A DNA stretch of 64,000 bases from Balanoglossus misakiensis (GCA_040954595.2 CM082596.2:8383124-8447123), one strand, 5' to 3'; counted from the stretch's first letter, positions 8,401-64,000 are shown. Translations and numbers: made by a program. Notes: generated from the sequence alone by a model not told the origin.

Positions 8401-9110
8401 ATACTCGCGAAACAGTGGCCTCTCTCGATATCACGAAAATTTCAACTTGCGAAAATAAAGTGTTTTACAGTATGACCATGTGAAGGTTCAACTAGGCCAA
8501 AGTAATAACCAAACTGTTTGTATATACAAACAAAAATCCCTGTCCCCCAAGAGGTTTGGATGATCTACATGCTATCATAGAAAGTTACACTGCAACTGTG
8601 CCAAGAAGAAAATGGATAAGACAGTTAAATGCAGAATATTCCTGACAATCTGCTGTAAGAGAATGGAGAGTAGATTGTACAGACGACATGTGGGTAGCAT
8701 CACCAATAGACTATTCTGTCAACTGACATTTTGGAAACTTCCAGGAAACAACTCATGAGAAATTTCACCCTTCCACCCCAGTTTCCTCTTCTATCCATCT
8801 TTAATACCATAGACACAATGGATTCAGACCAAACCATTATGGTGAAAGGGTTAACAGAAGAAGGTCAGTCATCCAGCAAGCATGTACAGGAACTGACTCC
8901 TAAAGTGGTGTTGTGTAAAATATTCCTGGGTCTTTTGTAAGCCAAAAGAATCATCAGTACAAACCAAGAGGCCCAGATCAGTTTGGCAATGCATGTGTGT
9001 GTTCCTGGTTTTTGTTGCCCTATTTCTTGGCAACTGATGCGACTGCCTTTTTGTTTCATGTCACTGCCGGAGGATGGCTTTGAAACGCCTGAGTTTGTAA
9101 CCATTAAAAA

Positions 9111-9460
9111 AGGGACAAAGTCTCTCTCTCGCTGCCCTTTTTCCATTAATTAAGTTTGATACAAGACACCGTTTATGTTATTCTACATGTGGAAATATAG
9201 TGAATCAATGTTTGACCACACACAACTTCAATCTCACTTGTATACAAGAGAGTGAAAAAACTCGCCCAAATGAATATTCAGTCTCTACCGTTTATTCATT
9301 TTGGCGAGATTTTTACTCTTATATCCTACAAACGGGATGGATGTTGTGTGTGGTCAAACGTTGATTCTCTATATATCCACATGTAGAATAACATAAACGG
9401 TGTCTTGTATCAAACATAATAATTGGAAAAATGGCAGCGAGAGAGAGAGACTTTGTCCCT
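9111..9460. mobile_element. Kolobok-type palindromic MITE, family A, copy 1
   Basis: AGGGACAAAGTCTCTC...GAGAGACTTTGTCCCT|TTAA; the ~350-bp element is one imperfect hairpin. TTAA flanks with RR..YY ends fit Kolobok. Confidence 0.85.
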
Positions 9461-12000: not shown

Positions 12001-12073
12001 TATCCAATGGGTTCATCAAGATGACAACCCTAGAACCCAGCAACCAAATATCTTAAATGCTCTCTTCGAACAG

Positions 12074-12334
12074 GCATCACCATCGAATACGAGTCGGGCC
12101 CGGTAAGCTACACACTGGCCTGTGACATTACAGATGGCGCCACCTCGGTGCAGCCAGTGGTCACTGTCAACATTGACCCAGTAAACGAACACATCCCAAC
12201 GTTCATGCCAGCAGCGTGGACTGTGTCCCACGGCGAGAATACCGCAGTCGGTTCTCTCATCGTGGACGCCTCGTCGAACGTGGCTGACGATGATGATCCA
12301 CCTCATGCAATCACCGCTTATTCTTTGAATTCAG
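12074..12334 (+). other. Isolated cadherin-repeat exon (nested gene exon or captured gene fragment) inside kinase intron 4
   Basis: gaacag|GC...TCA G|gtataa, 261 nt, stop-free, phase 1/1. Encodes ITIEYESGPVSYTLACDITDGATSVQPVVTVNIDPVNEHIPTFMPAAWTVSHGENTAVGSLIVDASSNVADDDDPPHAITAYSLNS. Cadherin motifs: IEYE (LDYE), PVNEHIPTF (DxNDNxPxF), ENTAVGS, ADDD. Confidence 0.8.
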
Positions 12335-23400: not shown

Positions 23401-23540
23401 ATATTTGCTAATATCCAGGAAACCATTGCAACTCTAGTCACACTGCTAATACCCAATGCAAACATACACACACATATGCTGAGTACTTCCTGGTTCAACG
23501 ACCTCCAGAAACTTGACCAACACGGGTACATATACATTAC

Positions 23541-23639
23541 CTTGTTATCATCCTTCCACCTGGTGAACACCTGTGTCAGCAGCTTGTACTGCAGCAACTC
23601 AAAGACAATGCAGAAATGGCCGTCAAACGTGAAGATATT
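23541..23639 (-). CDS. CMGC-group protein kinase exon 4 (subdomain V, hinge)
   Basis: ttccag|AAT...AAG|gtaatg, 99 nt. Encodes NIFTFDGHFCIVFELLQYKLLTQVFTRWKDDNK; H.CIVFELL is typical of DYRK/CLK kinases. Confidence 0.92.
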
Positions 23640-24022
23640 CTGGAAAAGGAGAACCAAATGGAAACTAGATCAGGGCAGCAATCATTATATTAGAAACATT
23701 AGGTTCACCTGCAGCAATGTGAACGTGGGTCTTACTCTTAAATCACAAAGGTGTAATTAGCGGGGAAATCTGTCATCATTGCTGTTGCTCTGTGGTTATT
23801 GGTGGCGGCCTTGACGACTTTCAAGGCTACGGCAGGCCACCAAAGGTCAATACAATACATGGGAAGTCGACTCCACTGCCGCTGGCACATGGACAAAGAT
23901 ATATGGAAGTTGTAATAGATGATTAAGTAGCCCTGTCATGCCCTGCAAACTGTTGGAAATAATGCCTTACCACCATCTTGGGGCCACACAGACACGCACA
24001 TGGATTTGGGACACGAGTTTAA

Positions 24023-24367
24023 AGGGACAAAGTCTCTCTCTCGCTGCCCTTTTCCCATTAATTATGTTTGATACAAGACACCATGTATAATGTTCTACAT
24101 GTGGGTATATAGTGAATCAATGTTTGACCACACACAACTTCCATCCAACTTGTAGACACGAAAGTGAAATTCGCCCAAATGAATAATCGGTCTTTACCAT
24201 TCATTCATTTTGGCGGGATTTTTACTCTCATATCCTACAAACGGGATGGAAGTTGTGTGTCGTTTAATGTTGATTCTCTATATATCCACAAGTAGAATAA
24301 TATAACTGGTGTCTTGTATCAAACATAATTAATGGAAAAAGGCCAGCAAGAGATAGACTTTGTCCCT
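24023..24367. mobile_element. Kolobok-type MITE family A, copy 3
   Basis: TTAA|AGGGACAAAG...CTTTGTCCCT|TTAA. Confidence 0.85.
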
Positions 24368-28500: not shown

Positions 28501-28761
28501 CAAATACAGTACATGTATGACTAAGTATGATCAGGGTTGCCTCAGTCCAAAAATGGCGTGTATTAGTACAGAGTTGTTGTTTTTCATGTTATGTTGCTAT
28601 ATGACCCTGGTCCATCTCAGGCCAAAACACTAGATTTTCACATAATCCAATAAAGCTGTCATAATTAAACAATACTTGGCTGATAATTTTACCACCTACT
28701 GTTTACGTTTGGCACCAGAAAGGAAACCTCAATCGAAAACTAAGAAGTCTGATTTATTTAC

Positions 28762-28916
28762 CTGGTAACCAATTTCGTAATACGCTGTATGAAGTATTTT
28801 GACTGCAACCATCTGATTTGGGGATTTCTGAAATGTGTCTTCTGCTTGGACGAGTACAGCCGAGATGCCTTCCCCCAGGAGTTTGACAAATCTGTAACGC
28901 TTGGCGAGCAATGGCA
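28762..28916 (-). CDS. CMGC-group protein kinase exon 2 (subdomains I-III)
   Basis: acag|TG CCA...TAC CAG|gtaaat, 155 nt. Encodes (V)PLLAKRYRFVKLLGEGISAVLVQAEDTFQKSPNQMVAVKILHTAYYEIGYQ, with the Gly loop GEGISA and the VAVK lysine. Confidence 0.92.
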
Positions 28917-31237
28917 CTGTTCAAAGTAAATCATACATTGGATGTTAGTGCAAAGGTGTTTTGAATGGACAGCATGAATGGAGTGTGATCAGACAGATTC
29001 AGGAAAATAATTCAAAGCTGCTGGAATGAGTATTTTAACTGCAATGAAACCATAATTCCCCCCAATGATCCATCCAACCAAAACAAATCCACTGTCAGTA
29101 AAAGAAAATGCTCACAATGATTGACAAAAATTAATATTTTGTTTATCAATTAGTCAAACCTGTGCTAGTAGCCACCTCTATATAGTGGAAAATTGTCCAT
29201 AGTGGCAACTTTATAAAACTCCTTAAGCAATTTACATATGCATTGGCTGACCTGTCTAAAAAGGCCAATGGTCTATAAAAGACAGTTGAGGAAAGCCTCT
29301 TGATAGGCCACTATAGAAATTTTTGACTTTAATTTTCCCATAAAAACAATGAATATGATGGCTACAAAAATGAAACTACTGTAACTGATGTGGTTTTCGG
29401 ATTTACATGTATTTCTGCAAAATACAGGCATTGCATATTCAAAGCTACCGGTATTTAAAAATTCCATGATTTTTCAAAGTTTTTGCAATGATTTTTCAGC
29501 AAGTATTTGTTTAATATTCAGGAGTAATAGTGCAAGTAATAATTGCGTGACACAATTTCCATGACCATGACCGTTTCGCGACACGCTGGTTCGTTGAATC
29601 GATTTCCCAGGGATTTCCAGGCATGAAAGTTCATGTTTCCAGGACTTTCAAGGTTTTTTCCAAGAGTGGTGGTACAATGTCCCGGCCTATTTCAAGGAAT
29701 ACACGAACCCTGGATCTGTGCAATGACGCGATATCCAGCGTTTGTACGGCATCGCAACCGTCATACATATCAGTGTTATGGCAACCAATGGGCCATTCTT
29801 TTGTTCGTTGACATTCTAATCAACAGAGAGATACAAGGTCACAGTTCCATCGTTCCTGGTTGCCATTCTCGGCCATATATGGATGCTGTGTCACCCTTGA
29901 TTGTCTGATCTGCGAGTCGTGACTGTTACAATATCGCGCAATGACTTCAAACAAAGTCTCATGTTGACCACATGATTTTGAAACAGCCATGGTGATTGGC
30001 TAAAACCTGGAGTGGGTCGAGGCGTGCCATGCTTTAGGGTGTCCAATCCAAACACTCAATTCACTCTGCCATGTCTGGTATGAGCCAATGAAGTTTGACC
30101 AGGAGGGAGGAGTCTCTGTTCCGCGTTATCATACACTCTATGCCTGGATTGGTTTGAAAGCACATATCCTACTGATGTTTCAAAGCATCCCACATGCATG
30201 TAGAAACATTTGAAGCCAAATTGACACATTGACTTTGATGGTTACAATGTACGTCATGTAGGTTATCATGGCAAGCTGCACTTCTGACCTACATGTCATG
30301 AGCTGCTGTGAAAATTGTCAAAAATGGAAATGACCTATTGGCAGATCGATGTATTAACCTATTTGTATTTAGAGCACGCACCCGGTGTCCTGTCGCTAAG
30401 GGAACAGCTGGTGTAGGTTGCAATTTCTCTTGGTCTAAGATTGACACAAGGCATGTGATGCCTGAACAGTGCAATTTCTACAACTTTGCAGAGGACGTGT
30501 AAATCCTCAAATCAGGCCAATATGGATGGCTCTAACCGAACTTTTGAACTCAAAACTGCCAAATCCTGCAATTATGTTCAGTGTGCCTTACCACTATTTG
30601 GACAGGGGCATGGTACTGTTCACCAGGATATTTTTGGTCCCCGGTTATTTTCACATTTTTGTGCCTACTGTAAGCAAATAATTTTCAGTGGTAAATGTTT
30701 GCGTTTTTACACCACACGCGACTGTCCTTCTGTGTTTGATGCTTTGACAGCTGTATCCACCCTCACAGTGTGATAAGTTTATCAAGTAAAGTGAGAGTGA
30801 AGAACGTCAGCTGACAAATACACTTGCAACATTGTTTACTCTTTCGTTAACACGTGCAGACATTGAGTGGTGACTTTTGCTACTGATTTAAGGGTCGATT
30901 GAAAACTTTTGAGTTGGAAATGGTTGCATTTTGTTGGTGTTTTAAGCTTGAAAGTCACAAAAATATCCAGCACGTTATGAAATCCCAGATTTCAGAACAT
31001 ATACCATATGGTATATAAGAAAGGTATTATCAATACATGTAGGTCTGTATTTTGAAACCTTAGTGGTACTACAAACATCAACGGTTTGATACTAATTGCA
31101 ACAATTGCCACAATGTTTCACTCATCTTAATCCACACTGTATGAAACTTTTTGCCTCAAAACATCATCCGATCCTAGTCTACACCATGCTATTTATCCAT
31201 AGCTACGGCAGAAGCCCATCCAAGTCTCATTGTGCTA

Positions 31238-31975
31238 GTCTCTCTCTCTCTCGCTGCCCTTTTTCCATAAATTATGTTTGATACAAAACACCGTTTATGT
31301 AATTCTTCATGTGGATATATAGTGAATCAATGTTCAACCACACACAACTTCCATACAACTTGTAGACACGAGAGGGAAAAACTCGCCAAAATGAATAATC
31401 AGTCTCTACCATTTATTCATTCTGGCGAGACTTTTACTCTCATATCCTACAAACGGGATGGAAGGTGTGTGTGGTTGAATGTTGATTCACTATATATCCA
31501 CATGTAGAATAACATGAACAGTGTCTTGTGTCAAACATAATTTATAGAAAAGGGGCAGTGAGAGAGACTTCGTCCCTTTAATGCATGCTGTGGGCCCATC
31601 GAACACATGTACATTTGAACCTGTCTACATGTATAGCGGCCAGTCAAGGGATTTTCTCTTTCTCGTTACCTTTTCCATTAATTATGTTTGATACAAGACA
31701 CCGTTTATGTAATTCTACTTGTGGATATATAGTGAACAACTTCCATCCCGCTTGTAGACACGAGAGTGAAAAAAAAATCACCAAAATGAATAATCGTTCT
31801 CTACCATTTATTCATTTTGGGCGAGTTTTTACTCTCATATCATAGAAACGGGATGGAAGTTGTGTGTGGTTGAACATTCTGTCACTACATATACACATGT
31901 ACATTAACATAAACTAAAACAGTGTCTTGTATCAAACATAATTAATGGAATAAAGGGTAGCGAGAGAGAGACTTT
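31238..31975. mobile_element. Two adjacent, partly truncated family-A MITE copies (31238-31577 and ~31647-31975)
   Basis: Same internal sequence (tgtttgatacaagacaccgtttatg...) with degenerate termini. Confidence 0.8.
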
Positions 31976-43714: not shown

Positions 43715-44130
43715 ATCAGAAGATGGCAGCCACATTCTGGATTTATCTGCTCGGAGGGCTCGTGCGAGGACTATTTTTTTCCTCCGTGTTTTGCATGATG
43801 TTTGAAACGCGACGTTCTCGCGGAAAACATTGAAATAAAAGTATGCGTCACTTTTGAAGAGAAAATGTCCAATCATAGCTGATTCACGTTGATTGGGATG
43901 AAAATTCGGTTGTTGGGGGGGGGGGGGAAGTAAAGGATGTGTTTGTTGGTGAGTCAGTGTGACGTGGGGATGACATTGCTTGCATCATTTGTGTTTTGTT
44001 TTGTTGGCCATTGCTGGCAAGGAATCGGGCAGCGCAGGCGGCCATTGTCGGGTACCACGGCGATAACCTTGTGGTTGTGTAATACCCAAACAACAAAAGT
44101 TCTCTTTCAAGGACAAGTCTTTCAGGTGTG
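43715..44130 (+). promoter_or_regulatory. Candidate promoter or enhancer of the BH3-only gene
   Basis: Cluster of YY1-like AAGATGGCAGCC (43720), TGCGTCA (43844), CCAAT (43869) and ATTGG (43892), a G-run, AP-1 TGAGTCA (43950-43956) and TGACGT (43960-43965), followed by a weak donor CAG|gtgtgt near 44125. Confidence 0.4.
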
Positions 44131-47100
44131 TTTGTACGTTCTCCTAATGACTTATACTGTTTTGAAATGAACTACGGGATCAATTCAGCTTCCTGGAATT
44201 GAACTTTTGGCCGACATGCTCGTTTGTAACAAGCGCTGATGCTGGCGTTTATCGTAAAAACAAAAACGTAAGATGACATTTTCGAACAAAAATCGTCTAT
44301 TTTTTTTCCAGTTAAAATTTTGTGAGCCTTCTTGAAACACTTTAGGGATTTTTTATGCAGTTTTCTAAAGTCTAATTGTTATGGCGGGAAATTTGTTCTC
44401 CTTCTGAAGATTTTGCTATGCTCTTCTGGTACGGCACCATCCATGTACAATAACAACATGGTTGTTTTCTTGTTTATTTTTCATTGAATTTGCAACTTTT
44501 TGATAGCGACCGTGATCAAAAATGTTTAATTTAACTAGCAAATAGTGTACTGCTGCTTGTTTTTTTCCTTTTATTTTACTACTCCTGGTGAAATTTACAT
44601 CGTTTTTACAATATGATGATGAACGACAGATGGGGCCAGTCATCCTTCACTTATTTTTACTACGACATGTAACACCTTTCTTTTATGTGCTTTTTTGAGA
44701 AATTAAGCATGAAGCAGTATCTTGTCTTGCCAACTTCATATATTTTAAGATTTGTTCTTGTTTTGCTGTTGTATTTTATTCAAAATCATAAAAAATGCCT
44801 TATTTCCTGTTTCTTTTGAGAAAATGTAGTGAAAAGATGGTTCGAACTATCTCGCTCGACAACACCGGTTATTCTGGGGACTGCTATTCGAAATTCTAAT
44901 TTTAACGCCAACTTTGCCTTCATGTTCCACCAATTCTTCTCCTTTTTGCTTAAAAAACAAAACAAAAAGTAATCCTCAGGCTATATGAGTATATTTTTAC
45001 ATTTCTAGTTAGTTTTGTCTTTTTTCATTCATGGAAATGACTGAAAACTCGTACTTTTTTCACAAAGATTGTCCTTTTTCGGCAGCCGCCATTTTGTATC
45101 AAAAGCGGCGATAGCTGTTGTTTTTCTTCACGTGTTTGATATTTTATCATTTCTCCTTTTCGGGTTTTTACTTTCTATCAAGAAACTTGTATCAAGGTCA
45201 CTCAAGACCAAACTTTCTTCAGTCTTTAGTCAGCGAGAACTTCAAGTTGGTATATTTACTTTTTAGTTCCTTTTTTGTGGCCAATATTGTGAAATTCATC
45301 AAACAAGATGGAGAGTTTCTTACGCTGACAAACAAGATGGCTGTTCCATGAATTACGTTGACAACACCATGTTGTACAGTCCACTTGACAATCGTATGGA
45401 CGTACATAGGAGGAATTTTGTCAGATATATTCTGACACTATTTCCGTCTTTATGTGGTCTTTTGCCAGGGCCAATTTAGTCGAGTTCTTCTCCGTAGGTA
45501 CCAATCTAGATTTTTTGGACGGTTCATTCTGCACAAATATTTTGCTTTGCACATTCAGCAGGTATGTTCGGCACATTTTTCATGTATTTTTCAAGTTCAT
45601 TAAGGATGCATAATACTGTGGATTTGCTGTTTAGTCTTTTTGCCTGTGTTGACATTTTATTTTGCTGGTAGATACAGAATCTGATTGAGTCATGGAAGCG
45701 TATCTCTAAGTTTATGAAAATCTGAACTTATTTTTAGAAATTAAACATTTTTTTCGAAAGTTATTTATTTGAATGTTCATTTATAATCAAAATTAATTAG
45801 TGTAGTGTAATTCAAGTGTAATTTCTTTACATTTATAAAGAAATGGGAAATCTTTGATGATTGTAAATTTTTGACCAGTTTCTGTGATAGGATGTGCGTT
45901 GCAGGCTCTAAGTGTTCAAAATGGCGAATGTAGACATAATGCTTGAAGAAGATACAGAAGAGGCACAAGTCAGTGTCAAACTACAAAAAATCAAACTTTT
46001 TATGTCATCAAGACAATGCTGACTGCCACACAATAACAAAAATGATAAAACAACCCAATGTGCCAATTTCAGATATTTTATCACAATACATAATATGTAT
46101 CTTTTCGATAACATGGCATGGAATCAAATTAGCTTCATATCTTTATTTTGATAGCAATAAGACTGCAAATTCAACTTTAAATGATGCAAATCAATCATTT
46201 ACCTGTTTGTTAAGTTCACTTGCCATCTCCTTGGCAAAATATTGTATTTCAATTCTCTTCATTCAAATTTAATTTAAATTTTAACTCAAATGCAAATTCT
46301 ATTCATTTGCAAAAATGTAGCATTCGAACATCTAAAAAGTAATAAATATCTCTCTTTGAATATAGTCATTTTTTTCAGTTATTTTTTTTTTTCATTTTTA
46401 TTGACTAAAATATGTAAATAAGTATTCCAAATAACTCTCTTTCTGGTGATTCTTTCTGGTAATTTCTGTAAAGCATAGACTTTCTGTAAACTTTATGATG
46501 GGATTTTGTTGGAAGGGATCTGTGATTGGAATGACTTTTCAAGTCAAGAGCTTACAATTGTAAAGTCACCAAAACATTCTTAAATTGTAGGAAATTGATT
46601 TACATTAAGAATAAAATGTATGGGGGAAAAACGCTTCAAATTAGGTTAATGTTATTGAAATGTGATAGTCAAGGTGTAGGCAAAGTCTTGTCAAAGTAGG
46701 TCCCTGGTCATGTTTATATCAAAGCCATCCTGCAAACTCATTATCATTTATGCATATATGCAGACTGCCTGGGAATTCTTGAAAGACAGAAATAGTTTGG
46801 GTTTTGTCCCCCCCCCCCCCCCCCCCCCACTCCTCTTTTATTTGCAGGAGGAGGTGTGGTCCCCAACAAAAACAGGCTGCAATTGACATTGTCAACATAT
46901 TAGAACGCATTTGCATTTCAACCAGACAATAAAGCGGCCTGATGACATCATACCACTACACAGTTTCCTAATATGGATCGTTCTTGGCTACTTTCCCAGT
47001 TTCCATAGTAACTCAGGTAGCATTTACCTCTGATAGACTTTGGGATTAATATTAACATATATCAACATGCCTAGTTATTTCCAAAGCTCCTTTGAAGCCA

Positions 47101-50100: not shown

Positions 50101-52124
50101 ATGTGTAATTGGCTGCTGAGTCAGCCAGTCCAAGCCTTTCTGCATGTCGAACACACACTCATGTGTCACTCATCCTTATGTCTTTATTATTATTCATGTC
50201 ATTCAAATAAGGAATTTCCTGCATTAATGAAGACAAATCTGAATAATAATGAAAAAGTGTAATTAGAATAAGACATATGTATTTATGCAATTACTACTGG
50301 GTAAAGCTATAGTGAAGTGTCCAGATTTTTATATTGTCCTGCATAAAGGTTTTAATCGAAATTATTACCCATGAAAATTTGGGATTAACTGCAGATATCT
50401 TCATAAGCAGAGAATACTGTGACATGTACCATAAGGTAGGTTTAAAAACAATAAGTGACATGTTATGTATTTATATATATATATATATGTATTGTTGTAA
50501 GGAATCACAGAGCAGGTCTGTTGATGCAGACGGTTGGGACATTACGCTAGTGTAGATAGGGGCCCATTTATGAAGACTTGGCTAGATAAACTGAGCCCCC
50601 TGCATGTGTTTTTGGTTGAACGACAAACATTTTATACACAAAGGTACCTGTGAAGATAAACTACAAAGTCAATAACATTGACCTTGCTTGAACTTTAACT
50701 GACTCCAATGTATTGATTGTTTTAGTTAATAAGGTTTGTTTTGAAATGTTATCTCTTTCATCCAGCCAAATCTAAATATAGACGGTTACAGGGACACTGC
50801 ATACAAGTATTACTGAACTTTACATGACCTCTCATTACTCAAGGTGACATGATCTCCATGTTTTATACAAGATAATTTCAATTCACATGTCTACTGTACA
50901 ATAAAATCACATAGCATTTGTCTGAGGGGTATGGAATTTGGGAAAATAATCTTCAGGGAAGTGAACTCAATAGACTTTGTGAAGAAAATGAAAACAAATC
51001 TATGGTCAGAGTGAATCACAAAGGAAGTGAGAATGTCTTAGAATAGAAGTATCAGTTATAGTTTAATTTAGTTGGCATAGTTACATGTATAGCCATGAAA
51101 TGGTTCAGTTTACCGGCAGTCTGTTCAGCAAAACTATTGCACTTAATTATCAACCCTTTCACCACCATGGTTTGGTCCAATTCCATTGTTTTTGGTGGCA
51201 ATGCTAGACCTAAAGTTTTGTTTCAATTTCAGGGATTTGGGCGAGCTGATAGACACCTGTTGGGTTTGTTTTATGTATAGGAAAACCTGTCTAAACCGAA
51301 CACTAAAGAGACTGAAGAAACTGGTTGATCTGTAAAGGTGTCTGGTTTATACAGGTTCTTTAACATGTGCTTCTACTGTACATGTATGTCAATGGGACAG
51401 GAACAAGTGTTCGGTATGGACAGGTTTCCAGATTAGATAAGGTTCGGTTTAGACAGGTTTTACTATACTAATACATGTATTAAAAGTAAATAAAACCGAT
51501 TTCTTGCAGAAGAAAACAAGAGACTGTATTGTTGTCACAACTTATGAAAACTTCAACCCGCTACCAAATGTGCCTGCAGTTTTCAAACAGTAATTTGTGT
51601 AAAGTTTAAAGTAACTTGCACCTCAGGAATTCTGAAGAACTGCCAACATTGGTTATGTTCAGACCATTGTACTCAAAATGAAATATATATACAATTGATC
51701 AAGCTACGATAGATCCAATAAAAATAGACAATTGTTGCAGTTCGTTAATTGCTGGGAAACAGGACATATGTTTTCTTTCATAGTGTTATCTCCGCCTATT
51801 CTCTTGTTTTGAAACATTGACCTTGGTTACTATGCTAAATCATACTTCCTTTGAGACTGTTATTGTATTTCAGCAGATGAACTTGAACATGACAATGATC
51901 AACTTATTTTTCCCGTTTGTGCTTATAGGCCCATCAGTTCAGTTGATAGTGACTATATGGTAACATTGACACTGCAATATTCTTTTCTGTTCCTACACAA
52001 GGATTCACCTGTCCAATTTGTTGTGAGCATTACTCTGTATTAAGATTGAAAACAACCCCAGTTGATCTCCTACTTATAGCTTTGTCCTTTTGTCGTAATG
52101 CTCCATCAGGTTGCAAGACCTAGG

Positions 52125-52698
52125 ATGAGTGAAGACCGAAGTGAAGTCATTGATGAACTCAGTATATTAGAAAGGAGTGAGTCGCCATCGAGCAAGCCCG
52201 CTTTGAGAGTCGAGTTTCAGATCGGTCCCGACCAGGAGCTGTGCAGCAACACCACCACCACCAGCGACAGCACAATGCAGCAGAGCCACCAAGAATTGGT
52301 CAGTATTGCCGAGCATCCGACGGATCCCAGCCAATCCAGCTCTTCACATTCCATGGGCGAGAGCGCTTTCCAGCTGCACGTGGTCACCTCGGCGCCGGTC
52401 CCCATTCCGGGGTCGGCGTCGTCGTCGAGTCGCGCCGGACCCCCTTTTGCCATTCAGACCTCGCCCGTCTACAGTTCACCGCAGTCTTTCATGATCCGCC
52501 AGAGTGTGTCGGCGCCGGCCCTGCCCTGCTATTTCTGCGGCAGCAGCCCCAAAGTGTGCCACACTGCGTCCACGCAGACCACGGCCCAGTCGGCCATGAT
52601 GGACCACAGACAACAAGCGGCAGCGGACAGTGAGGACAGTGACAGTGGTGACGAGAGCGACGATGACACCATCGAAGAAGTGCCACTCTATCTCCCCG
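52125..52698 (+). CDS. BH3-only protein (BIM/BAD-like), first coding exon: disordered Ser/Pro-rich region, LC8-binding TQT motif, acidic tract
   Basis: Acceptor ctccatcag|52110, ATG at 52125, GC-rich open frame of 191 codons, donor CCC G|gtaagt (phase 1). Contains GPPFAIQTSP...FMIRQS...CYF...SPKVCHTASTQT, collinear with BimEL as recalled. Confidence 0.85.
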
Positions 52699-55600
52699 GT
52701 AAGTCGATCCCGTCCTGTCAATATTTAAAACACAACATCTACATAACACAGTGTCAGTAACGGTCGCTTTTTTCGTATTAACTGTATTAAACTTTGTGAC
52801 ACTGGTTGAATTGTTTGTTATTTTGGAGTTAACCGTTTTCTGTGAAAATGACGTTCCAGTCCAACATCTATAGATCTCCACACATGACTTTGATTGTGTA
52901 TAATATAGAAAGTTGTCGTCTGCCTTAAACAGTGAGAGAAATATCGTCACTAATATGGGCAGCAGAGTGTGCCCCCTAAGCCAATATGACCAACCACTGA
53001 CTCGACAAACTCACTGGTGACTCAAGAAAAGTATCCACAAAACAATACATGCAAATGTACAGGGTTGACTCAGAGAAATTTCTAGAAATCCTCAAATTGG
53101 CCCAAAGCTTTCGAAAATTATATTTGTTAGAGGGCACACTGGGCATTATTGTCATTGGCTTGAGTGTGGTGTACATGTATCTTAACCAGAACAGATTTTT
53201 GTCTTGTAACCATTTAGGGTATATAGTCAGATTGGTTTACAATAGTTTGTTTTTCCCAGTCAGATGTTTCACCTGTGTTGTATTTTATTGTGACATTAAA
53301 TGCAATTGTTTGCTTTCATTCAGCGCATATAGCGTCTTAGACCTGACAAAAAGTGTTCAATTGATTGATGACACGTACCTGAGGGATGTTCAAAAGAACA
53401 GACAAAACGATTTACATGCCCTTGAACTAGGATGAAGTAAGTCACGGCCAAAAGTGCTACATATTGCCTCATTTTGGCCAGCTATCTGTGAAACTACCAT
53501 ACACGCTATGTCAAAGGTGAATGGAAAAAATCAATATGGCTTAGGTTTATTGATTGGGGTAGTAACAATGCACAGCCTTGAAGGAAAGACTTGACCCACG
53601 CAGCTGTGGTGATGGTCAAAAATCAATACATGGATAGAACATTGCCAGAGCTAAAAAACCATCATCAAGTATACGGCCATGGCCCTGTACAAACTCAAAT
53701 CCCCTGAGGACCTTGTGCCTTTCTGGACTCTGTCCCAATATCTAACACCAAGCCAATATATACAAGTTCTCATCACAATCTATTTCCTTGATAATCTGTA
53801 ATTTAAAAAAAAACCAGACATTCAATGAAACCTATCCTTTTGTGTGATCAATCTAAACCAATACAGAACCAACTATGGTAGATTTTTTTAAAAACTGTCC
53901 AAATCACATTTTCATCTATGAAATGATTGAAATAGTTAATACACTTTGGTCATGGTGTTGCCATCTGGTCGATTAAACAGCAAAATCTTCTGAGATTGAC
54001 AAATTCTTCAGAGGACAATTTGTACTCAGGAATGAGAGTAAGGTCAAAAATAGTTCAAGGTTACGGTTAAATAATTATGGATGACACTGTCAGTTGTAAT
54101 AATTGACATTTTGAGTGCTGAGAACCTCAACATCAACTAGAACCTAGCCCAAATAATCGTCTATTATTTGGTCTGTTGATCAAATAGTTGTCTTTGTGTT
54201 TTAACAGTGGGGTGAAATATAGTGTCCAGATTGGTTGTTTTGCTTTTCAGGAACTGGTAGTGTAGTACTGAAAGATAAAAATGAAAATACAAGAACCTAA
54301 TTTTGAAATTGTTATCTTTGAAATATATGTTTAATTCTGTAAATTAAAATGTGACATGACTTCCAGTATTTAAAGAACCATATCTGAATTTGCCATCAGT
54401 CACAGACAGTCACAGATACATGATCAGAATAGATACATGTACCACAATGTATGTGAGCTCTGTCACCAAAGAATTTCCACTCTTTTTGTTAAATTTGAAT
54501 TAATTTGTACCATATCATATGTTTTGACTATATGGTCTGTCATAATTTCAAGCAAGTCAAATTCAGTGTGAGTCTGCAGTCGCGCATTTGACCTCAAAAT
54601 GTTTGAATGAAACCTGAGATGAAACATGTTGAAAACCTGAGATGAAAAATGCTCATAAATATTTGAATGTTGCGTGATATTGCCCGGTATCAATGGTGAT
54701 GGTTGCATCATTAATTTACCACAATCGGTCATCGGTACCAGTTTATCCGGGACAAAAGCAGTTTTAAGTACCAGGAAAATTGGAATTGCCTGCATCATAT
54801 GTCACAGTGACATTGACTTCAAGGTCAGGGAGTACATACATGTACCTGTTGCGATTTGAGGCCATTTTGATTTTGCTAGGAAAGCCTGTGATTGGCGCGT
54901 TTACATGTACAACACAGAAGTGTTGCTTGTGAGTACTGCATACATGTAGACTAATGTGGTGACACCGATTTGAATGGCAGTGACTCAGTCCACTGTGGTT
55001 TGAGCAGTTATGTAGGTTTTGGGTTCAAGTTCAGGTCAGACCACTGGCTGTGGCATTGACACCACTGTGGTACAGTTGGTGATGGTACATGGACCACTGA
55101 TGCCAGTGGTAGTGATACCACCCTGATAACAGTATTAACACCATATATGGTTGTACCACCATCAATGGTGTACTTTTCACTAATTCAGTTCAAAAAAAGC
55201 ATGTAGGACATTCACAGCATGACACCTGATGTGTTATCATGGCCACATTTCAGTTTGGCACCTTCTGTGGTAATACCACTGTAATAACTTTCACTGATTG
55301 TGGCAAGTACATGTACAAAGCAACAGAGTTTAGCACCTTGTAAACAGAAACGAAGTGGCCCAGCTAACAGGTGGCAATTAATTCAAGAGACTCTCTCTCT
55401 CTCCATCCAGCCAGTCTTATCAGCGGTATCAGTAAAATACACAGTGAGTGTACATGTAGTTAGTCTCTCCACCCACAGCTCTGAATAGTTCTTTGTCCTC
55501 AAAAAGTAGCGACCTTTTTTTTCGAAATGAGGGGGGCGGAATAACACACTGCCTTGTGCTTTGCAATAAATCTTGTTCAGTTGGTTTTTCAGAGGTGACT

Positions 55601-56212
55601 ACAACAACATTGCTAGTCGCGGTGGAGGAGGTGTAGTCACTTCATGACTCGGAACATTGTGATTAAGACCACAGTGTCATAGACAAGACCACATGTGAAT
55701 GAATGCATCATCACAAACACGTTGGTGCAATATATTACTCACGCCCTTTGTTTGAAAAAAGTTTTTCAATAAATTAAATAAAATTAGTAAGAGTGAATAA
55801 TCAGATGAATTTGCCAGCTTTTTAATGCGTGATAAATGTGTCAATGTTAAGGTCAGGTCATGGTGACATTGGCTAATCTGTCTGTCTAGACATGGTAATT
55901 ATGAGTGTTCTGATGGACTTCTCTGTCAAGGAGTGAGAATAAGATTCAACTGTTGAAAATTAGAGTTAACAGATATCAAACGTTAGCTGAGGTGATAATC
56001 AAGCATATTACCATAAAAAGAATTAACAGAAAATGAACACTAACATAAGCAAACTATTATACCATAAAGACAACTGAAATGCTGTTTGATAACTTTTATT
56101 GTTCATATTTTTTGCAATTTTATTATAATATAAAATTGGTATTTTTCTCAGTGTAACCTTGTCCTATAAAATTTACAGCATACAGTTGTAGTCTGTAAAG
56201 TAGTCATTGAAA

Positions 56213-57065
56213 CACGGTTACTAGAAGAAGACGGTTAGGAAACTATTTTTTCTCCATTGTTAGATGCTCGCCTCGGTAAACACTTAGTGTAAACGAAAGA
56301 TATCAGGTGCTAACGAGCCTGGCCATACGAATAAACAGACAGAATAACTGACCGCTCGGTCAAAATGACGTCATTACCCCTACAATCCAAAGCAAACCAT
56401 ACTCATGTTTACGGAATTGCTTGCAGGCACAGTACGTATACCACCAGATTTGAGGAAAACAGATCAGAGAGTGGATAATTTATAAAGTCACAGCACATTT
56501 ATGACAATTTTGAACTTTCAAGGACATGATGAAGCCATACATTCTTTGTCTTGACTGTGCCCTAGAGATTCGATGCGAACCAAAACAAACAAGATGGCCG
56601 CCAAAGGCTATATCGATAATGTTAACGACTGTATCGAAATGGGTATGCAATCTCAACGAAATATTCCAATTGGAATAAACGAAATAGCCCATGCAATACA
56701 AAAAGGTGTAAAATATCTAAATATATTTAAAAAAAACAGAAATGCGACCATCAGGGTTGAATTCTAGGGGTTCAAAATTTGACGCTATTTGAGTCCGGAC
56801 TTTTAGTTAACAACCCAAGAAACAATGGTAGAGTGTCGCAAGCCCAACAGACTATGACCGTGCACTCCATAAGCCTATATGGAACTCGTACAAAAAAAAG
56901 TGGCGCTGTACTCTGACGAAAAAGGGCAGATGAAGGGGTTCAAAAATTAACACGTTCCCCAATACAACCCCACATAGCGGTTCAGACATGTACTCTCCTA
57001 GCTAACACCTCGTTCACACCTTCCGAACAATAGAGTTTCCTAACCGTCTTCTTCTAGTAACCGTG
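56213..57065. mobile_element. Non-autonomous DNA transposon with 32-bp perfect TIRs and a 7-bp TSD (P-superfamily-like)
   Basis: TIR CACGGTTACTAGAAGAAGACGGTTAGGAAACT at both ends, direct repeat ATTGAAA at 56206-56212 and 57066-57072, no transposase ORF. Confidence 0.88.
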
Positions 57066-59572
57066 ATTGAAACAATAAATTTTTTTTCAACAAACAAATT
57101 GATAATTTATGTACAAGAATTTACAACTGTTCATTATGTTAATGAAAGTTTTAAAGAGTTTTTTTATCATCTATAGCCAAAATTTATTGAAATCTATGGC
57201 CTGTCAGATTGAATGTGATCACGCACTTATAGGCGGACACTGTTGCAAGACTCAACTGGATGACATCATTTGAGTTGTCATGGTAGCATTTCCTCATTAG
57301 CATAGTCTACCACAGCAGGATTTTGTCCTATGATGGCATAGTAAGTTCTGTGTTTATGGTTTGGATGTACAGTAATAGAGGGACTGTGTTTGGATGGATG
57401 TTGTACATGATCAGCGACTGTGAAGTACTTGCCCCTGAGTACAGTTTACTTTTTCAGTGCAACAGAGACATGCTTTTTGTTTCACTGTTTCTATGGCAGT
57501 AAATCAAATTGTGTGAATCACGCGCTTGATGACCTTGGTAATCATGACTTCACTCTTACTAACTCCAGGCACTCAGCCAACAATGTGAAGTTGCCCTCAT
57601 TAAAGTTGCCACCAGTTCAAATTTAAATAACACCAACGTCATTAGAACGATCCTTCATCGGTCACCCGCTGACATTTGACCTCTGACATTTCACCCTTGA
57701 CGTTTATCCATGAATCTTAAATAGTGGCGTACCTGGGCGCAAGCAGAGAACTGGGCAACATTTCCATGGTTACCGCTGTGCAATCATTGCGGTACACCGT
57801 ACACTTTAGCAGAAGACGTGGTGGTCAATATTAACTTGCAGTTTTTCAAAGTTCACCCCCATCCCTTGCATTGTAGGCGGTCGTGTCGATTTAGACTTTT
57901 TAAAGGTACATCACCAATACATGAATACAGAAATAACCGCACAGCTTGAAGTAAAGTGGTCATTTCACTCGGAAAGGGGTCTTCCAAAGACCATAAGTAA
58001 CAAGCTGTTTCAGTTGCCATGGCTATCTATTTTTATACTTCATAACAATTAAAAGTAAACTCATTTTTAATGTGATTGTCATACTTGTAACTGGCAGGAA
58101 TGTGACTGGTTGATTCATAGGGGAGAGAACTGAAGAGGAAGTGTTTTTTGTTCAGTATTTCTTTTCTTTTTTTGGTTCTGTGTGTCAAGAAGTTTTTTTC
58201 TGCTTACAGCACGCTTGTATGAGACAGTTGTTAACAGACAAATGATTCAACCGATTGTACACATACTGGTTTATAGGATGATAATTTTGTATATATGGGA
58301 TTTTTATCATCAGAAAAACAAGTCAATACATTAAAGTTATACAGTCACCTATGTATGGTCACAAGGGCATGTCTTAGTCTTCAAATGACTGTGTGGTGGC
58401 GCACTTTTTTTTTCGTGTGCCACCCATTGAAAATCTCTGATTGGCCATATTTGAATTTTCCATGGTAAAAGTAGCTGAATTTGCATATATATAGGTGACT
58501 GTGTACCTGTCAAAATACTAACAAGATGGCCAAGAGTTATTATAGCTTTCTTTATTGGAGATTTCAAGAAAGTAGCATTCACCAAACAGTACTGTGTGTA
58601 TGGTGGTTATGAAGAACTTGTTAAATGTTTCAGATGGAAAGGGTGTTATGATTGAATAAATTCTACAAGGATTTAAAGAAACTGGTCGAGTTGTGTTTTA
58701 TCAACAAAACTTAATTGGGTGCCAATCTGATGACCAGCTCACTCATTCTACTTTTACATTGTAGAGTTTCTGACTAATAAAGTTAAAATAATTTAACAGT
58801 GTAGTACTCTGCAGTCCTTTGAAAACAGGACAGTTTTGTTTCGACAAGAAAGGATGACTTATCAACAACAATAAAACAATATGACAAACAAGTAAAACAG
58901 CATGCAGTATTATTAAAAAAAACTAGATTTGCAGCATGCAGTGGATAGACACAGTGCCCTATTGGCATGGTCAACTTTGAAGGCCACAAATATTTCTGTG
59001 GTTTTGTAAATGTTATGTATGAGTTGCAAGCAGTGATGTATGGTTATAAAGTTTTAGCAGTTTCTCAAGTAATGACATCACATAACAACAAGTCTGCTGT
59101 GACGATTGCCTGTTCATTCTGCAACTTCAAATAAAAACGTTGTCTTTGGACATCAGTGAGTGGTTTACTGGTTACATGTAGTTGTCAAAGTGCCTTGGAG
59201 AACTACAAAATGATGAATGTTAAAAAGGGCATACGTTATAAATATGGATGTGATGTGATTGTTTTATATGTACTCTTACAATAATGTGTTTGTCTTCCAG
59301 GGATATAGTCAACAGATCAAATTGGTCTCAAATAAAAGAAAGACTGCAAAAAATAAAAGTTGTCATGTCAAAATTTGTGAAACGTCAACTTTTCATCAAA
59401 AAGTTAGAAATTAATGGATGATTTTACATCTGAGCTATGCTCTCAAAGAGATTTTTTTGAATGGCGGAATATTTGAAGACATGGTTTATCAATATTTTAG
59501 TCAGGCCTTGATACATATAGAGGTTGCAGAGTTAGAAACAGCATGTTTTTTTTCATGTTGAATTGCTTTTAA

Positions 59573-59917
59573 AGGGACAAAGTCTCTCTCATGCTGCCCA
59601 ATTTTCATTAATTTTGTTTGATGCAAGACACTGTTTATGTATGTACATGTGGATATATAGTGAATCAACGTTCATCCACACACAACTTCCATCCCACTTG
59701 TAGACACTAGAGTGAAAAACTCACCAAAATGAATAATCGGTGTTTACCATTTGTTTATTTGGGCGAGATTTTTACCCTCATATCCTACAAACGGGATGGA
59801 AGGTGTGTGTGGTTGAATGTTGATTCACAATATATCCACATGTAGAATAACATAAACGGTGTCTTGTATCAAACAAAATTAATGGAAAAAGGGCAGCAAG
59901 AGAGAGACTTTGTTCCT
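59573..59917. mobile_element. Kolobok-type MITE family A, copy 6
   Basis: TTAA|AGGGACAAAGT...ACTTTGTTCCT|TTAA. Confidence 0.85.
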
Positions 59918-59963
59918 TTAATACTGTGTAATTGACGCTGTTTCTGTGTCGTTTGGCAATTAG

Positions 59964-60163
59964 GGAATGGTAATAACCGTTGGCGATCCCGGTCTGAGTC
60001 GGACGACCCTGGCAGCCGCACTCGATGCCACCCGTTGCCGGACTTGTTGGAATTCCGCAACCGATCCCACTCGGAGCCAGCAGATATACGACCTGAGATT
60101 GAGGTTGGCCGGGAATTACGCCGGATTAGCGATGAATTCCACCTGTCTTATCAGGAATGCAGG
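59964..60163 (+). CDS. BH3-only protein (BIM/BAD-like), BH3 exon
   Basis: caattag|GG...AGG|gtcagt, 200 nt, phase 1/0, in phase with the 52698 donor. Encodes (G)NGNNRWRSRSESDDPGSRTRCHPLPDLLEFRNRSHSEPADIRPEIEVGRELRRISDEFHLSYQECR; the BH3 core L-x-x-I-S-D-E-F is at 60116-60139. The downstream terminal exon was not identified. Confidence 0.9.
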
Positions 60164-60358
60164 GTCAGTCAACAATTTATTTAAACTATATTCATAATTA
60201 TTATCATATCATATCATTTCTTGCTTTTATATCCCCTCTGATGAAGTCTTGTATGTATAAAAAAACAAAAGCAAAATGTGGTGATGTTGGTGACGGCATT
60301 GTCATTTATGTATTGCTGGGTTTGATCAATGTTCAAGTTAATTTTTGTGAGTGTTTAA

Positions 60359-60705
60359 AGGGACAATTTTGACATTATTTTGGTTATTTTATTTTCATAG
60401 GCTATTTGATGTTGTTGTCTACTCACTGAAACATGCCCGTTGACCGGTTGTCAAGGCCTCAATTCACAAGCCATGCATGGAATATCACAAATGATTACTT
60501 CCATCATTTAATTTTTGGTCTTCACCAAAAATGATTTGGCAGGCATATTCTCAGGATGGTGTTCATATACCTGATGTACAGGCTGCAGGTTGAATTGTGA
60601 CAACTGTTCATTTAGCATGTTTCAGTGAGCAGAATAAGATAAATAGCTCATCAAGTAAAATTTGAATCACCAAAAAAATGTCAAAAAATGAGCAACTTTG
60701 TCCCT
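60359..60705. mobile_element. Kolobok-type MITE family B (same termini, different interior)
   Basis: TTAA|AGGGACAA...TTGTCCCT|TTAA with internal inverted arms (ctcactgaaacatgc / gcatgtttcagtgag). Confidence 0.7.
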
Positions 60706-63700
60706 TTAACATGGTAGATTTATGGAGGCTGCTTCTTTGAACTGAACACCGTGTGACTTGACCTTATTGTTTGCAAAATATTGTAATTGAAAGGAGGGAT
60801 GTTCAAATGAAATGAGGGAGTGAAGAACAGTAACACTGCCGCAGTGTCATCGCGAGAACATGTGACAGAAGAACCAAAGCCAATCTCTGCAAAAGTGTTA
60901 TTTCATCAAAATCAGAAATTAGGTCGCTTGCTTCCTTTGTCTGCACAGCCAGTCAGCGGAAATAAGTATGACTGTGCGATCTGTTACCAAGGAAACAGAA
61001 AACAAACAAATATCTGAACACCCCCGAAGAGACAATGAACCCTGGGAAAAAACTTGTCCAATTTTTATGGATTTTTATCTGTAGATAAATGGGCTTGTGT
61101 TTGCTGTTTCAATAGGCCGTCGCATGTTTTTATGCTCACTGGCAAACCCGTCTCGAGGGAAATCATCCATATTTAACATAATGAGAAATATTATTTTGTT
61201 TTGTTTATAGTCAGATTCTATATACAGCAGAATCTCAGTTTTGTTGTATTAAGTAATAATGTTTAACAACATCAAGGTAATGGGGGAAAAACAAAGGAAA
61301 AACAACAACAGACTAATTAGATACAAATTGCCAATGTTATATCGCCTTTCTGACCACAAGTGGCAGATTGACTGAAAGTGTTCCCTGTAAAAATTCGTGG
61401 CCAATTTCATGAAAGGTAACAACCCATACACAGTTGTTAAACACTGAATTATTAGAGATAGTCATCGGATCATTATGTCACCCCACATGTGAACATCTGA
61501 AAATCTGAATTCAAAGTAAAGACAACCAATTTGGGCAGATCAAGCTTCTTAAGTCATCATATTCAAATATGAAATAATCCAATATGGGGCAGAGAGAGAA
61601 AGAGGCCGGGAGGAATTATGTAAAACTGTAAATGGAATGATGAGATGTGTCCTTCATGGCAAACTACAGCACAAGGTCACCTTAAGTCTGTTTGAGTAAC
61701 CTTGCCCGGGTGAAGCAACCACCGAGATAAATTGTGGGACCTGACTGCTGGAAAAGTGGTCCAAATTGAACACAACTTCTTATTTATTCAAAATCATGAC
61801 ACTGAGACAAACATGAAATTATGTTGCAACCTTGAAGCATTGTATTGAGTGTTTACATCAATAACATACATGCTTTTTATTTATAAGTTTTCTCAGTTTA
61901 TCATTTTAACTTAAGTTATTTCACTCTTGAGACATGTGGTTTTGATTTTCATTTGCCTGTTAATAATTTCTAGGGAATATTATCAGTACTTGTAATATTT
62001 TCAGGTGTGTGTTATTTTTGATTTCTGTTTTCTGAAATATGCAAACGTAAATAATAAGTGTCAGTATGTATGGTAACCAATGTGCCTTTGTGGATTGTGA
62101 ATGGAGGAGAGATGAATTTCTTGGTGTGTCGACTTGTGCAGAGCTGCCGTCCTAACATTGATAAAATACATTATGTTAATGAGATTGTTCAATATTAACA
62201 AGCCGTGTGGTGGTCCCTAAGTTGTCTAACCATGAACTTGACTGCACCCTGTCTATTGATTCAGATTGGACAGGGCAGAAGTTACTCACACAAGTCTGCC
62301 ATGCTTGTTCGCAACTCAGAACTGCTCGATTTTGATGCCAGTCGTTCCTGGTTCAGTTTCAAATGATTTTAAAATTTTCTTGATTTTAAATTATTACTGG
62401 TTCTCTGTATTTAAAGTAAATTTCGATAATCCTTTTGTGGAAACAGTGAAAGATACAAATGTATATTTCTGAGTTAAAGGCTTGAGTGTTTGATCGAGTG
62501 ATATTGTTTAATGTGTGGCTGTTGTTGGTAGTCTTGTTCTAATGATGTCAAGGCCAATCACCTGCCATATTGGGTTTTTCTCCACAAATTTCACAACTGT
62601 TTACCAATTTCTTTGCGTTTTTATTACAAACCACACCTTCTGTTGAAAAACACCATTGTTTGGTCCATTATTTATTTACAATTTGTTTTGTTTTTGTTTG
62701 TTGTTTTATTTTTAGATCTGGTCATGCTGATTATCATAATTTATGTGGCATGTCATGTAATGTATTGTAATGTATGACGGCTGGTTGGAGAATGGATGTG
62801 GGCATTCAAAAAATTTGTTTACTATCATCTTCGACACTATAAACACAAATATCGGGTGACATGACTGGATTGATCAAGATCTTCGCAAGATTCTGTTTCA
62901 AAAATCATTGATTTCTGAAATCTCACAGGATCTCCAGATCCGACCAAGCAACAGTAGTCTCGAACTCTGAGTAAAATCTTAAAATGACAGGAAAGTCCAG
63001 AATATGCAAATGTCAACACTCCACGCTAAAACAGATTAAAATTAAAAGATGTTTTTGAAGCCAAAGAAGATCTAATTTTATAAATGGTGGTGATTTTTTT
63101 GTATGAATTGCTGATGACTATGGGCTGATTCAGCATTTTATGCGCAGACCTTGAAATATTCTAAATGGTAAAAGAAGGTTCATTGACTGGCCTACTTAGC
63201 TTACATTGATATATTTAGATTCTGGAAACCATTACTGCAAGTTTGTGTTGACATTCTTGTTATATTTTAGCCAAGGTCACCAAAATACTTCCATATAATT
63301 TTTGTTCCAGAATTTTTTTGTTTAATATTTTACAACAGCCCATTTTAATGATTAGCAAAATTACTCAAAATTTCATTGTCAATATTTTACCAATATGATT
63401 ATAATGACATTTACATAAAGCTACATATGTACATAATATTTTAAAAACTAAAGTCGGTTTATCACATAAATGATTATATGTCCACATACATGCATCTAAC
63501 AATGGTAGTTTTTGCAGAATTTTGAATGAAAGTAATTTAGATGGTTTCTTGGAAGAAACAGTTAGCCATGATGCATAATTTTATATACATGTGTTTACAA
63601 GCAGTAATCAGATTTTGTTTGACTCAACATTGATAAATTATTTGATTTCTGGTCTGTTTTCACCAATGCCGGAATATTGCACTCTTCCGGAGTGAATTTC

Positions 63701-64000
63701 CTGAACGATTTGAACTTGATACATGAGAATATTGCCTTTATTCTTCCAGTTTCTGGAAAAATTATCGAAAGTTGAAATATTGGACTGCGTGCAAAACCTA
63801 CTGCTTTCAATTACGTGTATGTTTCTATGTTAATTGGTCCTAATATGGGTCACAGGCAGTGACATTGAATTATTAACTTTGGCCTGATCTGTCTGTCTCT
63901 GTGAATAAAGAATCAATTCCTAATCTTCATGGGGGAAATGTCCGAATGACTCCCAACATGGTATGTTTACATTTTGCCTGTGGATTCGATGTTGTTATGT

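Follow-up and report, generated by a model that had tools for sequence, protein, structure and literature searches.

BH3-only proteins are usually regarded as unrelated to each other beyond the BH3 motif. Two of them, BIM (BCL2L11; PF08945, PF06773) and BAD (PF10514), are the known systems closest to a gene on the plus strand of a 64,000-nucleotide stretch of the genome of Balanoglossus misakiensis, an enteropneust hemichordate (GCA_040954595.2 CM082596.2:8383124-8447123; the whole stretch is hereafter called the window). This gene is predicted to encode a disordered BH3-only apoptosis trigger, and it is probably the unduplicated descendant (pro-orthologue) of a bilaterian gene ancestral to both vertebrate BIM and BAD. 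In BIM, binding to dynein light chain follows the consensus (K/R)xTQT (PMC2871139), and the SGY region forms an RSK/beta-TrCP degron (bioRxiv 10.1101/2025.08.14.670414). In BAD, Ser112 and Ser136 (mouse numbering) are inhibitory 14-3-3 sites (PMC3156807). A first, sequence-only reading of the window held that vertebrates split tethering and 14-3-3 silencing between paralogues; the split is not clean, since Akt-phosphorylated BIM also binds 14-3-3 (PMC2871139). The same reading stated that BH3-only proteins are poorly catalogued outside vertebrates, which has to be qualified: Suraweera et al. 2022 (PMC8998228, Fig. 5) list putative invertebrate BH3-only proteins, obtained in searches seeded with Bim, Bad and Bmf, from Saccoglossus, Acanthaster, Apostichopus/Stichopus, Branchiostoma, Lingula and bivalves. 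These candidates very probably belong to the same family as the window gene.

Gene structure and protein class

The gene is represented in the window by a two-exon frame, 52125-52698 joined to 59964-60163, of 774 nucleotides and 258 stop-free codons with a phase-1 join, and in these coordinates the sequence-only reading was right. The splice signals are canonical, with a GTAAGT donor after 52698, a pyrimidine-rich acceptor up to 59963 and a second donor, GTCAGT, after 60163; the guanine-cytosine (GC) content of the exons (0.59 and 0.56) exceeds that of the intron (0.37). The first coding exon (52110..52698) has its ATG at 52125, encodes residues 1-191 plus one base, and is predicted to be disordered. 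An acceptor-like AG at 52108-52109 stands behind a pyrimidine tract just upstream, and a non-coding exon probably lies 5' of this one. The phase-1 intron (52699..59963; 7,265 nucleotides, GT...AG) interrupts the frame 51 codons ahead of the BH3 leucine and is followed by the BH3 exon (59964..60163; residues 192-258), which holds both BAD-type basophilic serine sites, an LPD motif, PADxRPE and the BH3 helix. A loose BH3 pattern finds a single match among 3,523 six-frame open reading frame pieces of the window, and it falls in this exon. A phase-0 intron then begins with the GTCAGT donor (60164..64000), the third coding exon lying beyond the window; within the window neither tblastn nor a profile of the tail found exon 3 (best tail match 7.4 bits, E 0.83). 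The 258-residue frame is open as claimed but is not the whole protein, as the orthologues extend 35-36 residues past it. A locally GC-richer stretch at ~43900-44260, non-coding in look, may be a promoter or non-coding first exon of the gene. In Ptychodera flava, four accessions share one protein sequence, consistent with alternative 5' exons.

Three hemichordate orthologues align across the junction with no missing-exon gap: those of P. flava (XP_070571390, 281 residues; 63% identity to the window protein, 155 of 245 aligned) and Glandiceps talaboti (XP_077997413, 286 residues; 57%), both annotated 'uncharacterized', and the protein P0005 (240 residues; 51%). Exon 1 alone is 51% identical to the P. 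flava orthologue over residues 1-180 (tblastn, E 3e-51), and the BH3 exon is 84-92% identical to the orthologues. In these proteins the two exon products follow one another as they do in the window, without space for an extra exon, which supports the 52698/59964 junction; the junction is a prediction drawn from orthologue gene models plus the P0005 protein. In the region of exon 3, outside the window, the hemichordate and starfish C-termini (P0003-P0008) end in G-S-x-V, presumably resembling a class I PDZ ligand, and the hemichordates add RRxS just before it.

The BH3 exon scores 50.2 bits with the Pfam BIM BH3 model PF08945 (Bclx_interact; cut-off 25), the orthologues scoring 42-47 bits, and it narrowly passes the BAD model PF10514 (29.9 bits, cut-off 28.2). 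With the latter model P. flava also passes (29.7), whereas G. talaboti (21.0) and P0005 (20.8) fall short. The Bim_N model PF06773, a further likeness proposed for checking, matches neither the window pieces nor the three orthologues, and fish BIMs likewise go without a match. With the Pfam BMF model the window exon reaches 14.6 bits, below the cut-off of 27 (hemichordates 12-16.9), and the Pfam Bcl-2 domain matches none of the window pieces or the three orthologues. The best sequence matches of the BH3 region in the PDB are BIM BH3 peptides, followed by BAD, with ungapped alignment to both, and the region has the four hydrophobic positions and the conserved Leu and Asp of a BH3 motif. Exon 1 has no PDB match and a single Pfam match, by chance. 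An AlphaFold2 model of the P. flava orthologue (P0003), made with a 13-sequence alignment, is of low confidence throughout, with a predicted local distance difference test score below 50 in 156/281 residues and two helices only, 224-253 (BH3) and 261-274 (near the C-terminus); the best template-modelling score in an Atlas structure search was no higher than 0.31. The protein thus fits a disordered BH3-only protein, for which BCL-2 binding and killing are predicted.

The family across bilaterians

A three-sequence profile matched 27 proteins among 4,984 candidates, including those of starfish, sea cucumber, crinoid, nemertean, brachiopod, Owenia, bivalves and snail. A 13-sequence profile built from invertebrates only gave 197 matches at E<=1e-3 among 1.84 billion protein representatives; the best 150 of the 197 include amphioxus, brittle star and bryozoan proteins and, from vertebrates, 19 proteins of BAD type and 11 of BIM type, which are the denominators used below. 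Assignment to BIM or BAD was by Pfam scores (17/19 BAD-type and 11/11 BIM-type proteins scanned) and source names, P0160 and P0164 being placed by motif. The BH3 motif is conserved in hemichordates, echinoderms, amphioxus and lophotrochozoans, and the motifs follow a fixed order: SxPIxIP, TQT, RxRxxS (site 1), LPD, RxRxxSxP (site 2) and BH3, with DSG/SGY upstream of TQT. Amphioxus carries a near-complete set within a single protein. The idea that the combination of BIM and BAD features is a mosaic peculiar to one invertebrate protein has to be given up, the arrangement being family-wide across bilaterians. In protein searches of limited sensitivity, one locus was found per named invertebrate species with the three-sequence profile and one for B. 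floridae.

Some relatives depart from this pattern. P0117, P0121, P0027, P0099 and similar proteins have sites 1 and 2 and the BH3 motif and lack LPD; they could be a second invertebrate paralogue. In P0050 (Amphiura filiformis XP_072051574) a region resembling a death effector domain (32.3 bits, cut-off 35.9) is joined to a family member; this may reflect true gene fusion or an error of annotation. In the ESM Atlas, the queries P0003 and P0052 share as top look-alike a 247-residue cluster of 119 mostly arthropod proteins (0.87-0.88, under the bar of 0.9), which offers a lead to an arthropod family member.

Motifs and their register

Positions are counted here from the conserved BH3 leucine (L), so that L-15 lies 15 residues ahead of it. 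In the N-terminal half, the motif S-x-P-[IV]-x-I-P (52389..52409, residues 89-95) is kept in the invertebrate family, being present in 4/4 hemichordate, 1/1 amphioxus, 6/6 echinoderm and 9/11 named lophotrochozoan proteins, and in 0/11 BIM and 0/19 BAD. A reading of SxPIxIP as a Raptor-binding motif was considered and dropped, as the relevant passages of PMC9852543 lend it no support. A CxxC motif (52527..52538, residues 135-138) is shared with P. flava, G. talaboti and amphioxus. STQT (52569..52580, residues 149-152) occupies a position homologous to the dynein-light-chain motif of BIM, and TQT is invariant in the 13-sequence alignment and present in 4/4 hemichordates. The BIM/BMF-type TQT noted at first sight is thus present, but with Ala at the K/R position of the published consensus. 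The PSPxxQ extension after TQT is absent in hemichordates and present in amphioxus and in 11/11 and 97/98 BIM proteins. SGY/DSG is found in 10/10 BIM, 3/3 amphioxus, 6/6 echinoderm and 10/10 named lophotrochozoan proteins, and in 0/4 hemichordate and 0/10 BAD.

The first motif of the BH3 exon is site 1, two overlapping RxRxxS motifs (59978..60001) whose serines, Ser202 and Ser204, lie at L-41 and L-39 in the register of BAD Ser112; 15/19 BAD have such a serine 36-40 residues before the Leu. The LPD motif (60035..60043, residues 216-218) is invariant in the 13-sequence alignment, and it is found in 3/19 BAD and 0/11 BIM, cartilaginous-fish BAD retaining LPE. Site 2, RxRSxSxP (60056..60079), contains Ser228, a predicted Akt/14-3-3 site in the register of BAD Ser136. 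Its serine stands at L-15 in the window, 2/3 orthologues, amphioxus and 18/19 BAD, and at L-14 in the remaining orthologue and BAD. The sequence-only reading took this motif for BAD's own. It is not BAD-specific, because basal-fish and horn-shark BIM carry it in the same register: it is present in 15/20 fish and shark BIM (at L-15 in 10/10 measured), among them those of sturgeon, gar, tarpon, eels, bonytongues and horn shark, and in 0/98 amniote BIM. There follows the BIM-type linker PADxRPEI (60077..60100, residues 230-237), of which RPE is found in 78/98 amniote BIM, 4/6 echinoderm and 0/19 BAD proteins. The Glu ahead of PAD, which had also been assigned to BIM, agrees with primate BIM, but that likeness is probably coincidental because basal fish have Met or Leu and horn shark Val at this place. 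The BH3 motif itself (60104..60139) is formed by Val239, Leu243, Ile246, Asp248 and Phe250 and has BAD-type Gly240 and Ser247: the pair L-3/L+4 is Gly/Ser in the window and in 19/19 BAD and Ala/Gly in 10/11 BIM, while L-4/L+3 is Tyr/Met in 19/19 BAD and Val/Ile in the window. Ser247 forms an RRxS site within the BH3 motif, presumably equivalent to BAD Ser155, so that three BAD-type basophilic sites stand in register in the window protein (L-41/-39, L-15 and L+4).

BIM-like and BAD-like features do lie in one continuous segment, as had been noticed, and it is ungapped over 32 residues. The window protein is identical to gar BIM at 19/32 and to reedfish BAD at 18/32, while BIM and BAD agree with each other at 11-14/32. 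Altogether 25 of the window's 32 residues are found in BIM or BAD (12 in both, 7 in BIM only and 6 in BAD only). From left to right, identity is first BAD-like, then BIM-like in the middle part, and BAD-like again in the core. The exon boundaries can be compared as well. The BH3 exon starts at L-51 in the window and in rodent-type BAD (two pairs), at L-53 in two bivalve-type pairs and at about L-30 in fish BIM; it ends at L+15 in the window, starfish and platypus BIM and at L+12 in BAD. The boundaries of relatives were taken from the points at which spliced and read-through database proteins diverge, not from genomes, in 25 pairs of which about half are uninformative on one side.

Homology outside the BH3 core

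For this comparison the BH3 core was removed and block profiles were built from 26 invertebrate proteins; anchored blocks were used because in the A5 alignment MAFFT had wrongly paired the TQT block of BIM with the LPD motif. The invertebrate TQT-block profile detects 11/11 BIM at 15-31 bits and 0/19 BAD above 3.7 bits, the maximum of 3,000 shuffles being 11.7. Among 98 further amniote-type BIMs, 85 score above the shuffle maximum and 82 at E<0.05 at proteome scale, and 12/14 fish and shark BIMs were matched likewise. The invertebrate pre-BH3 block places 13/19 BAD and 1/11 BIM over the 99.9th shuffle percentile. In the reverse direction, a BAD-only profile without BH3 gives the window protein 18.5 bits, where the highest of 2,700 shuffles reaches 10.3 (E at proteome scale, 0.0024), and a BIM-only profile gives amphioxus, Owenia, nemertean and nine mollusc-type proteins 10-26 bits. 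Outside BH3, the profile of BIM alone does not pick up BAD, nor that of BAD alone BIM (maximum 5.5 bits). Since the family detects both and the two vertebrate profiles miss one another, the invertebrate family bridges BIM and BAD. Judged from these sequence profiles, the family as a whole is homologous to both genes beyond the BH3 core, strongly so between its TQT block and BIM and moderately between its pre-BH3 block and BAD. The link to BIM owes its strength to amphioxus, molluscs and Owenia and not to the window N-terminal half; for the window protein itself only the BAD-side homology outside BH3 is significant.

Phylogeny and dating

A phylogeny had been suggested as a check. In the main tree (36 rows, 47 columns) the BAD clade is supported at 99/100 and BIM, minus the long Mobula branch, at 97/94, but the base is a polytomy. 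Approximately unbiased (AU) tests were run on 26 rows, ten long-branch or redundant rows having been dropped (P0132, P0047, P0122, P0123, P0158, P0196, P0004, P0189, P0008 and P0015); a BIM plus BAD clade (p-AU 0.359) and BIM with deuterostome invertebrates (p 0.378) both went unrejected. As the trees are uninformative at the base, the duplication is dated from distribution and parsimony. BIM and BAD are both named in cartilaginous fish, and their split is therefore older than jawed vertebrates. For lamprey and hagfish, PMC8998228 reports no BH3-only protein, and none turned up in the present searches.

Interpretation

The combined BIM and BAD features are most likely a shared ancestral state from which each vertebrate gene lost a part, and the suggestion that the gene is a candidate ancestral state of two vertebrate genes fits the comparative data. 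Survival (basophilic) kinases would silence such a protein by phosphorylating Ser202/204 and Ser228, leading to 14-3-3 capture, and Ser247 inside the BH3 motif, and the TQT motif would tether it to dynein light chain. After a duplication in the vertebrate line, BAD would have retained the phosphosite exon and dropped the TQT half. BIM would have held on to the SGY degron along with the TQT block while shedding the basophilic sites stepwise, with site 2 left in sharks and basal ray-finned fish and gone in amniotes.

Several findings limit this account or weigh against it. The hemichordates have no SGY/DSG degron-like motif, so the window protein is not the complete ancestral state; given the motif losses in its N-terminal half, the hemichordate protein would be nearest that state in the BH3 exon and amphioxus nearer in the N-terminal half. 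Because the vertebrate BIM and BAD sequences were collected through their similarity, positives are favoured; RxRxxS motifs, moreover, arise easily, shuffles being no control for that. The full-length relatives P0117 and P0121 are without TQT. The pre-BH3 block reaches E<0.05 at proteome scale in only 3/19 BAD, one shuffle scored 19.3 bits, and the BIM-only profile gives the window N-terminal half only 1.3 bits. No cyclostome, BMF or PUMA protein was among the best 120 of 331 matches of the BIM-crowded A5 profile search. In the tree, built on 47 columns, the hemichordates belong to a polytomy at the base and have branches of almost no length, and 6/6 constrained topologies were left unrejected by the AU tests (p 0.16-0.38).

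Among the alternatives, the one that survives best, though unlikely, is that the BIM/BAD split is older than bilaterians and that the gene is a BIM-lineage orthologue with primitive phosphosites, an invertebrate BAD-lineage gene having been lost or missed. The far higher score with the BIM BH3 model than with the BAD model (50.2 versus 29.9 bits), the presence of TQT and RPE, the existence of relatives without TQT and the unrejected grouping of BIM with deuterostome invertebrates (AU p 0.378) would all suit it. Yet the gene would have to have been lost several times over, in hemichordates, echinoderms, amphioxus and lophotrochozoans, if the BAD lineage is that old, and site 1, Gly at L-3, Ser at L+4 and the L-51 exon start are common to the window and BAD and not to BIM. 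Little weight can be given to the gene being a plain BAD orthologue whose TQT and RPE likeness to BIM was gained independently. Although the three BAD serines stand in register, the exon start is equal and the window, outside BH3, scores on the BAD-only and not the BIM-only profile, the TQT block of the family gives a strong match to BIM, with SGY in the same motif order, and the extended TQT-P-S-P-x-C-Q match is common to amphioxus, molluscs and BIM; moreover, the Tyr at L-4 and Met at L+3 of 19/19 BAD are missing from the window, and site 2 is present in basal BIM itself. Convergence of short linear motifs on unrelated disordered proteins likewise deserves scant credence: several motifs share order and exact spacing, the 32-residue segment is ungapped and exon boundaries match, against which stand the shortness of every motif, the mutual blindness of BIM-only and BAD-only profiles outside BH3 (at most 5.5 bits) and the description of BH3-only proteins as polyphyletic in PMC11463336. 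A true mosaic, made in the hemichordate line by fusion or gene conversion of separate BIM and BAD genes, would explain why identity alternates between BAD-like, BIM-like and BAD-like along the segment, but has next to no probability, since the same arrangement in echinoderms, amphioxus and lophotrochozoans largely refutes it and basal BIM, too, carries the left-hand motif.

Descent of BIM and BAD from one bilaterian gene can be extended into a broader proposal, which is put forward tentatively, doubt slightly outweighing belief. A single BH3-only gene of bilaterians, kept to this day as one copy in hemichordates, echinoderms, amphioxus and lophotrochozoans, would have carried a full kit of beta-TrCP degron, dynein-light-chain anchor, three kinase/14-3-3 sites and BH3, and the vertebrate genome duplications would have yielded BIM, BAD, BMF and PUMA from it. 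The main mammalian BH3-only sensors would then be one ohnologue family that shared out the ancestral inputs, and would not be polyphyletic. The human genes for these four lie at 2q13, 11q13, 15q15 and 19q13, in presumably paralogous segments. The inclusion of BMF and PUMA comes from sub-threshold matches and from these map positions, and their kinship is a lead.

If descent from one ancestral gene is correct, BIM and BAD, central drug-relevant death sensors, are paralogues that share out one ancestral control set, and shark and basal-fish BIM should have a working 14-3-3 site. The window protein would then be a natural one in which to ask about the ancestral binding range (BIM-like, of all partners, or BAD-like, of a subset) and about direct BAX/BAK activation. 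The family would likely represent the missing trigger of apoptosis in molluscs, echinoderms and amphioxus, with database entries labelled 'uncharacterized'.

Other features of the window

A dispersed repeat with near-identical translated copies occurs at 8865-9149, 23939-24061, 31548-31688 and ~59860-59925, the last copy stopping just 5' of the BH3 exon acceptor. Exons of a kinase gene lie on the minus strand between 1903 and 28920 (pieces 28732-28920, within 23196-23669 and within 1903-2190); by motifs they are probably of the CMGC type, with weak fragment matches (Pfam Pkinase E 0.07; PDB kinases E 0.2-1.6). A cadherin-repeat exon on the plus strand (12034-12339; top PDB match CELSR1, E 3e-10) sits between the opposite-strand kinase exons.

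Comparison with known systems

The gene class and the existence of the family are already known; the evidence for a BIM-BAD bridge and the BAD-type site in basal-fish BIM appear to be new, although their novelty is not certain. Where it deals with its invertebrate candidates, PMC8998228 aligns the BH3 region alone and makes no claim of orthology, of a partition of motifs or of a common ancestor of BIM and BAD. Full-text literature searches, with most subscription journals outside their reach, found no proposal of a BIM/BAD pro-orthologue. To BMF and PUMA the likeness consists of weak Pfam BMF matches and language-model look-alike clusters (0.81-0.88), all below thresholds.

With BIM, the window protein shares the PADxRPE N-flank of the BH3 motif, Ile at L+3, TQT and an exon end at L+14/15, and with shark and basal ray-finned fish BIM also RxRxxSxP at L-15. 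It differs from BIM in having no Bim_N region, no K before xTQT, no TQTPSPxxQ extension and no SSGY degron, in having Gly/Ser for BIM's Ala/Gly at L-3/L+4, and in possessing site 1, LPD and SxPIxIP, which BIM is without. With BAD, on the other hand, it shares three basophilic serines in register (Ser112, Ser136 and the BH3 RRxS), Gly at L-3 and the exon start at L-51; BAD differs in the missing TQT half (0/19), in Tyr at L-4 and Met at L+3 (19/19) and in being about 100 residues shorter. The likeness is closest around site 2, where reedfish BAD and the window protein show one difference in nine residues, and chimaera and sawfish BAD keep LPE and SEP.

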